Part shown: one piece after another, positions 63,597-64,000 of the stretch
Layout of the letters: each line of letters starts with the position of its first letter
Numbering within the stretch: position 1 is the first letter of the stretch
NCBI RefSeq assembly: GCF_050920415.1
Contig: NZ_CP169309.1
From: Escherichia coli
Lineage (GTDB): Bacteria > Pseudomonadota > Gammaproteobacteria > Enterobacterales > Enterobacteriaceae
Reading direction: 5' to 3' (one strand)
Length of the DNA stretch: 64,000 nucleotides
Translations under genes and position numbers: made by a program
The notes under the pieces: model-generated
What the model was told of the DNA's origin: nothing
Database searches by the model: none
What the model saw: the letters and a program-made list of their open reading frames with translations, nothing else

Positions 63597-64000
63597 GTGA
63601 ATTTAACCCTGACCCGAAGACTCTGGATGGGCTTTGCCCTGATGGCGCTGTTAACCCTGACCAGTACCCTGGTGGGATGGTACAACCTGCGATTTATCAG
63701 CCAGGTGGAAAAAGACAATACTCAGGCATTGATTCCTACCATGAATATGGCGCGCCAGTTGAGCGAAGCCAGCGCCTGGGAACTTTTCGCCGCACAGAAC
63801 CTGACCAGTGCCGATAACGAAAAGATGTGGCAGGCGCAGGGGCGAATGCTCACCGCACAAAGCCTGAAGATTAACGCGTTGCTGCAAGCGTTACGGGAAC
63901 AAGGTTTTGATACCACCGCTATTGAACAACAGGAGCAGGAGATCTCCCGTTCGTTACGTCAACAAGGGGAACTGGTGGGGCAGCGTTTGCAACTGCGCCA
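63597..64000 (+). CDS. torS: sensor histidine kinase TorS, 5' portion; continues beyond the window
   Basis: hand translation from GTG at 63597 gives [23 protein letters not shown]...; absent from the ORF track because of the non-ATG start; an ATG 10 codons downstream is an alternative. Confidence 0.8.

Follow-up and report, generated by a model that had tools for sequence, protein, structure and literature searches.

Comparative evidence on the GTG and ATG candidate start codons of the sensor kinase gene torS in Escherichia coli

Introduction

TorS of Escherichia coli K-12 (b0993, NP_415513.2, 914 aa; UniProt P39453 as cited in PMC6814406) is the sensor histidine kinase/response regulator of the TMAO reductase system, to which two different translation starts have been assigned. 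As set out by Carey et al. 2019 (eLife 8:e49081, PMC6814406), UniProt uses a GTG codon, Jourlin et al. 1996 inferred a downstream ATG (904 aa), and neither codon is preceded by a canonical Shine-Dalgarno sequence. In the reporter experiment of the same study, each candidate K-12 codon was fused directly to codon 2 of lacZ, which gave 0.35 ± 0.08 Miller units for GTG-lacZ and 10.5 ± 0.5 for ATG-lacZ (source data, PMC6814406), and the ATG was termed “experimentally confirmed” (PMC6814406). Two transcription starts of native K-12 torS were mapped in vitro by primer extension, with attB lying between TSS1 and TSS2 (PMC6814406). TSS2 begins at an adjacent G or A, 3–4 nt before the GTG, and the shortness of the resulting leader in front of a GUG was the authors' argument for the ATG on the TSS2 transcript (PMC6814406). 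The question of GTG or ATG in torS is therefore an already-published, ordinary start-codon ambiguity in a well-known gene.

Herein we analyze the same two codons in a 64,000-nucleotide stretch of E. coli DNA (the window), where the GTG occupies 63597–63599 on the plus strand and the ATG lies in frame ten codons downstream at 63627–63629 (plus strand), so that the ATG assigned by Jourlin 1996 and Carey 2019 corresponds to window position 63627. The plus strand around the two codons reads ...ACTGACC GTG AAT TTA ACC CTG ACC CGA AGA CTC TGG ATG GGC... The locus resembles that of K-12 in the position of the GTG and in its torR-torT-torS-yccM neighbourhood, and differs from it by a T at 63583, where K-12 has an A, and by two further single-nucleotide differences within the 15 nt before the GTG. 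Whereas the earlier assignments chose the ATG, the comparative data presented here point to the GTG.

Results

The torS gene and its neighbourhood in the window

A previous sequence-only reading of this DNA had pointed out the GTG at 63597 and the in-frame ATG ten codons on (reading MGFALMALL); both are present, and the translation is TorS. The torS coding sequence runs off the end of the window, which holds codons 1–134 of 914 (63597–64000, plus strand), and these 134 residues are identical to both K-12 TorS and the protein of E. coli strain MFDS1022581. At the nucleotide level the region is 100% identical to MFDS1022581 and ~97.5% identical to K-12. The full-length TorS of MFDS1022581 scored 1896.5 bits against NF008543 (cutoff 982) and 956 bits against TIGR02956 (cutoff 676.5), the alignment to the latter beginning at residue 5, and its domain architecture consists of PF21689 (TorS_sensor_domain, residues 46–316) followed by HAMP, HisKA, HATPase_c, Response_reg, and Hpt. 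The window fragment alone matched positions 1–134 of the NCBIfam equivalog model NF008543 with 275.7 bits, which falls below the cutoff because only 134 aa are present, and of the sensor domain it holds just the N-terminal 89 residues. The gene order is torR (61821–62513, plus strand), torT (62486–63514, minus strand), and torS from 63597 (plus strand), with torC and torA upstream in MFDS1022581; the convergent 3′ coding ends of torR and torT overlap by 28 bp (62486–62513).

The RefSeq torS coding sequence starts exactly at the GTG (locus position 3198, window 63597), and the GTG is likewise the torS start in RefSeq/PGAP annotation and in the curated MG1655 record NC_000913.3 (NP_415513.2, 914 aa). 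The sequence-only reading called the GTG the only in-frame start giving the conserved N-terminus, which is correct with respect to that N-terminus but passes over other in-frame ATGs upstream, at 63477 (codon −40) and 63513 (codon −28). It also ascribed the absence of torS from an ATG-only list of reading frames to the GTG start; since upstream in-frame ATGs exist and the reading frame leaves the window, the likelier cause is that the frame runs off the window end (134/914 codons present).

In the window, 77 codons free of stops precede the GTG in the torS frame, because the T at 63583 yields TTA where the A of K-12 yields an in-frame TAA at codon −5. Could this strain, lacking the K-12 stop, start torS at 63513 or 63477 and make an extended TorS? 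The open frame and its two ATGs at −28 and −40 would allow it, yet the extension would run antisense to the torT start region (the ATG at 63513 overlaps the torT start codon of the opposite strand) and cross the intergenic promoter region. Moreover, stops interrupt the frame in the E. coli allele that is in the majority (3185 genomes) and in all other genera, the region is without coding-type conservation, and RefSeq annotates no such extension in the identical strain. An upstream start is thus highly improbable, and the ATGs at 63477 and 63513, which are unconserved and are cut off by the TAA five codons before the GTG in the K-12-type allele, were rejected as torS starts, the region being judged non-coding. 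In-frame stops lie 1–16 codons upstream in the other genera, and 1–6 codons upstream in K-12 and Providencia.

The T/A difference at 63583 (plus strand) is a common polymorphism: exact matches to a 32-mer carrying T came from 1592 of 5426 complete E. coli genomes (about 29%), and those to its counterpart with A from 3185 of the 5426 (about 59%). The A both creates the TAA five codons before the GTG and improves the −10 hexamer discussed below. E. albertii and E. whittamii carry T at this position, and T may be the ancestral state. The other two polymorphic sites in the 15 nt before the GTG are 63588 and 63592.

Codons 1–10 across genera

That a GTG should lie in frame no more than ten codons from an ATG is within chance expectation (about 3/64 per codon), and the significance of the torS GTG comes from its conservation across species and not from its mere presence near an ATG. 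We compared orthologous loci from other species, together with the DNA of more distant syntenic orthologues, in a small comparative sample, with four independent lineages carrying the GTG. The GTG is invariant in nine sequences from E. coli, E. albertii, E. whittamii, Citrobacter sp. MGH106, and three Providencia species, while the overall nucleotide identity among the GTG-bearing loci is just 71–78%. Codons 2–10 (63600–63626, plus strand; NLTLTRRLW) contain seven variable sites with at least nine substitution events, among which Thr4Ser is the sole amino-acid change. The Arg7-Arg8 pair is kept through first-position swaps between CGA and AGA, and Leu9 through CTC, CTG, and TTG. With 27% of the possible single changes being synonymous, the probability of finding at least eight of nine events synonymous is 2 × 10−4. 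The ratio of all-synonymous to non-synonymous variable codons is 4:1 in the GTG frame, as against 1:5 and 0:6 in the other two frames.

The change in substitution pattern coincides with the GTG. Variable aligned columns number 19 of 30 from −30 to −1 and 7 of 30 from +1 to +30, nucleotide identity to E. coli is 0.40–0.47 upstream compared with 0.78–0.85 in +4 to +30, and residue conservation is 0.89 for residues 2–10 compared with 0.80–0.87 for residues 11–40. Taken from alignments, these values indicate that constraint of the coding type starts at the GTG. The frame-specific synonymous pattern implies that translation of codons 2–10 persisted while these genera diverged, and the GTG must serve them because no other start can, given the in-frame stops just upstream in K-12 and Providencia. 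The competing reading holds that in E. coli the ATG at 63627 is the only start of torS and gives a 904-aa protein (Carey 2019, Jourlin 1996), the GTG and the next 27 nt being a 5′ untranslated leader conserved for transcription or translation initiation. Frame-specific, near-purely synonymous substitutions are unexpected in an untranslated leader, and the curated databases still use the GTG; on the whole of the evidence given here and below we consider an ATG-only start rather unlikely.

TorS of Salmonella enterica subsp. arizonae/diarizonae and of the more distant syntenic orthologues P0001, P0002, and P0009 is like that of E. coli in the torR/torT/torS order, the sensor domain, and an SLT-[RQH]-RLW motif followed by a hydrophobic helix. 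In Salmonella arizonae/diarizonae, P0001, and P0002 the start is an ATG that precedes the GTG position by one codon, and the N-terminus reads M-x-x-P-S-L-T-[RQ]-R-L-W-L-A-F, while in P0009 the start ATG lies about two codons after the GTG position; stops are found 1–10 codons further upstream in all of these outgroups. They differ from E. coli in having Leu at codon 11 (CTG/TTG) and hence no downstream alternative start, and it follows from the outgroup Leu that the codon-11 ATG encodes an internal Met that is a derived trait confined to one small clade. The same distribution can be read in favour of the ATG-only start, in that Met at codon 11 is found solely in the Escherichia/Citrobacter/Providencia clade, where it is accompanied by a weakened upstream start, GTG in place of ATG.

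Within E. coli the region is too invariant to be informative, a 42-mer from −3 to +39 being identical in 5391 of 5403 genomes. Among the 12 of 5403 genomes with any change in this 42-mer is E. coli BHUCD01 (NZ_CM183442.1, positions 94–96), which has TTG in place of the ATG at codon 11. This TTG is the ancestral Leu codon and may reflect either genuine variation or an error in sequencing. Separately, identity to E. coli over the TorS sensor region is 71% for Providencia (Morganellaceae), which carries the GTG and Met11, and 64% for Salmonella arizonae, which carries the ancestral ATG and Leu11; this sequence relationship suggests that the tor regulatory genes were horizontally transferred between the Escherichia/Citrobacter and Providencia lineages.

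The N-terminal tail and the first helix

The most hydrophobic 19-residue segment by Kyte-Doolittle maximum comprises residues 9–27 (63621–63677, plus strand) and is predicted to form transmembrane helix 1. With a GTG start it would be preceded by a cytoplasmic tail that carries an Arg-Arg pair, MNLTLTRR, of net charge +2; on the other side of the helix, the next 15 residues sum to a net charge of 0. The proposal that the Arg pair anchors the helix with its N-terminus inside is based on the positive-inside rule. A basic residue directly before helix 1 is present only with the GTG start and absent with the ATG start.

Alignment with other TorS N-termini, the check proposed by the sequence-only reading, showed a pattern at the family level: among 64 full-length TorS-family representatives of 50%-identity clusters, 50 have K or R in the column of E. 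coli Arg8, immediately followed by L-[LFW]-x-[AS]-F. Arg8 is the family's most conserved N-terminal residue, and initiation at the ATG only would delete it, leaving the hydrophobic segment of helix 1 without a positive N-terminal flank.

Ribosome-binding and promoter signals

Hybridisation energies to the anti-Shine-Dalgarno sequence in Escherichia are −0.9 kcal/mol for the GTG and −1.0 kcal/mol for the ATG. The two codons are not told apart by this measure, as the values are alike and at the random level (a value of −1 or below is attained by 67% of random 20-mers). In Escherichia and Citrobacter the ATG is preceded at a distance of 6 nt by a weak AAGA element (−1.0 kcal/mol), a point for the ATG-only start, against which it can be held that Providencia loses the AAGA while its GTG gains TAGG (−2.4 to −3.7 kcal/mol); the ATG there has no site (−0.9 kcal/mol). 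All TorS orthologues have weak ribosome-binding sites, unlike the divergent neighbour torT, whose start codon (63512–63514, minus strand) lies 82 bp from the torS GTG and has a Shine-Dalgarno sequence GAGG at −5.6 kcal/mol. Weak sites are consistent with a low-copy sensor.

On the window, the positions equivalent to K-12 TSS2 (the G and A that lie 4 and 3 nt before the GTG) would be 63593–63594 (plus strand; placed from PMC6814406). A putative sigma-70 promoter for TSS2, read from the sequence, spans 63560–63587 (plus strand) and consists of TTGCGA, a 16 nt spacer, and TTAAGT, the last being TAAAGT in K-12. A promoter and terminator scan of 63300–63800 returned nothing at the tool's threshold, and the TSS2 promoter is assigned from the published start and the reading of the hexamers. 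No inverted repeats were detected in 63480–63640, and an Rfam search gave no match. The −10 hexamer TTAAGT of the window lacks the conserved A at position 2, and TSS2, which is the main argument against the GTG, may be weaker in the window allele, to judge from this hexamer.

The sequence at 63569–63589 comprises an unoccupied HK022-type attB with the 21-bp core AACCTTT-TTCACCT-TAAGTAC. In the loci of E. coli E69 (L003) and E. whittamii (L006), identity to the window stops at TTCACCT (at about 1900–2000 of these loci), and the flank beyond TTCACCT in E69 is 98.6% identical to HK022 int/attP. This prophage/host junction indicates that a prophage sits directly upstream of torS in both genomes, an arrangement described by Carey et al. 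(PMC6814406). A further block, ACTCAACCTTTTT (63565–63577, 20–32 nt upstream of the GTG), is kept in Escherichia, Citrobacter, Providencia, and P0002 and partly in Salmonella, with diverging flanks. Its minus strand contains TTGAGT, a possible −35 hexamer for torT, and the block could be part of the IscR site that torT and torS are reported to share in the region between them.

Discussion

The claim of the sequence-only reading that torS starts at the GTG agrees with RefSeq/PGAP, with the curated MG1655 record, and with the comparative evidence, and it is at odds with published reporter data that favour the ATG (PMC6814406). That reading had named initiation at the downstream ATG as the observation that would count against it, and evidence of this kind was already in print (Carey et al. 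2019, PMC6814406), although the experiment is not decisive. The difference between 0.35 and 10.5 Miller units (PMC6814406) is a point for an ATG-only start. However, the activity of the ATG fusion is silent on where the ribosome starts, because the GTG and codons 2–10 stay in frame in this construct (construct description, PMC6814406), and since the ATG fusion retains the GTG, the negative GTG fusion is the sole discriminating datum. In the GTG fusion everything downstream of the GTG was replaced, and for a GTG without a Shine-Dalgarno sequence initiation may depend on the local downstream sequence. Modelling gave a mean unpaired probability at the GTG of about 0.55–0.62 for native K-12 with its long leader and of about 0.43 for the (GTG)lacZ fusion, a drop too modest to account for a 30-fold loss and compatible with an effect of the downstream sequence as well as with none. 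As a set of end-point fusions without start-codon point mutants, the reporter test is not decisive, yet it keeps the GTG from counting as settled. A literature search for start-site profiling or proteomic evidence on the torS start found no paper on either the 914-aa or the 904-aa form.

Efficient leaderless initiation in E. coli needs a 5′-terminal AUG, and a GUG behind a leader of 3–4 nt is not expected to work. The TSS2 transcript is similar to near-leaderless mRNAs in that it begins 3–4 nt before the GTG, and it differs from them in that the codon is GUG; leaderless mRNAs have their 5′ end at or near an AUG, whereas here the codon is GUG and the 5′ end is known in vitro only and for the K-12 allele only. 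The location of TSS2 3–4 nt upstream of the GTG (PMC6814406) speaks for the ATG as far as transcripts from this start are concerned.

Both codons might be in use, with long-leader transcripts (from TSS1 or an HK022-type prophage promoter) initiating at the GTG and TSS2 transcripts at the ATG, and with two proteoforms that differ by the ten-residue Arg-Arg tail. Such dual use would fit the two in vitro transcription starts flanking attB (PMC6814406), and it would accommodate the constraint on codons 2–10, which implies use of the GTG, together with reporter data that are compatible with use of the ATG. The −10 hexamer of TSS2 is also polymorphic, with 3185 genomes having TAAAGT and 1592 having TTAAGT, the form found in this window. 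Set against this, the GTG-only fusion bore both promoters and yet gave background activity (PMC6814406), and TSS2 has been seen in vitro only. We regard dual use as possible without being the likely outcome; it overlaps with the favoured GTG explanation and, at this tentative level, is the most interesting reading that remains. Its extension, that the proteoform ratio is promoter-dependent and that the T/A polymorphism at 63583 and prophage occupancy of attB would shift the ratio of the 914-aa to the 904-aa form between strains, is more doubtful.

We conclude that the GTG is probably a real torS start, perhaps alongside the ATG. The codon, its frame, its annotation, its conservation, and the substitution pattern are direct observations, from which we infer that this strain initiates at the GTG in vivo. 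According to the favoured explanation, selection would maintain the GTG at 63597, a candidate start that is both annotated and conserved in evolution, and this codon would yield a 914-aa sensor kinase whose first ten residues form a short cytoplasmic tail, with Arg7-Arg8 anchoring helix 1 in an N-in orientation, a topological role deduced from charge and position. Initiation would be intrinsically weak, owing to the GTG codon and the absence of a Shine-Dalgarno sequence, which would suit a low-copy sensor, and it would probably rely on the A/U-rich sequence just downstream. The ATG at 63627 (codon 11) may initiate too, above all on transcripts that start 3–4 nt before the GTG.

For TorS, the choice of start is mostly an annotation matter: it fixes the residue numbering and the presence or absence of a positively charged cytoplasmic tail before helix 1. 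The literature, in which the ATG is “experimentally confirmed”, and the databases, which use the GTG, disagree, and the comparative evidence argues against changing the database start on the reporter experiment alone. TorS constructs begun at the ATG would miss the conserved Arg-Arg motif.
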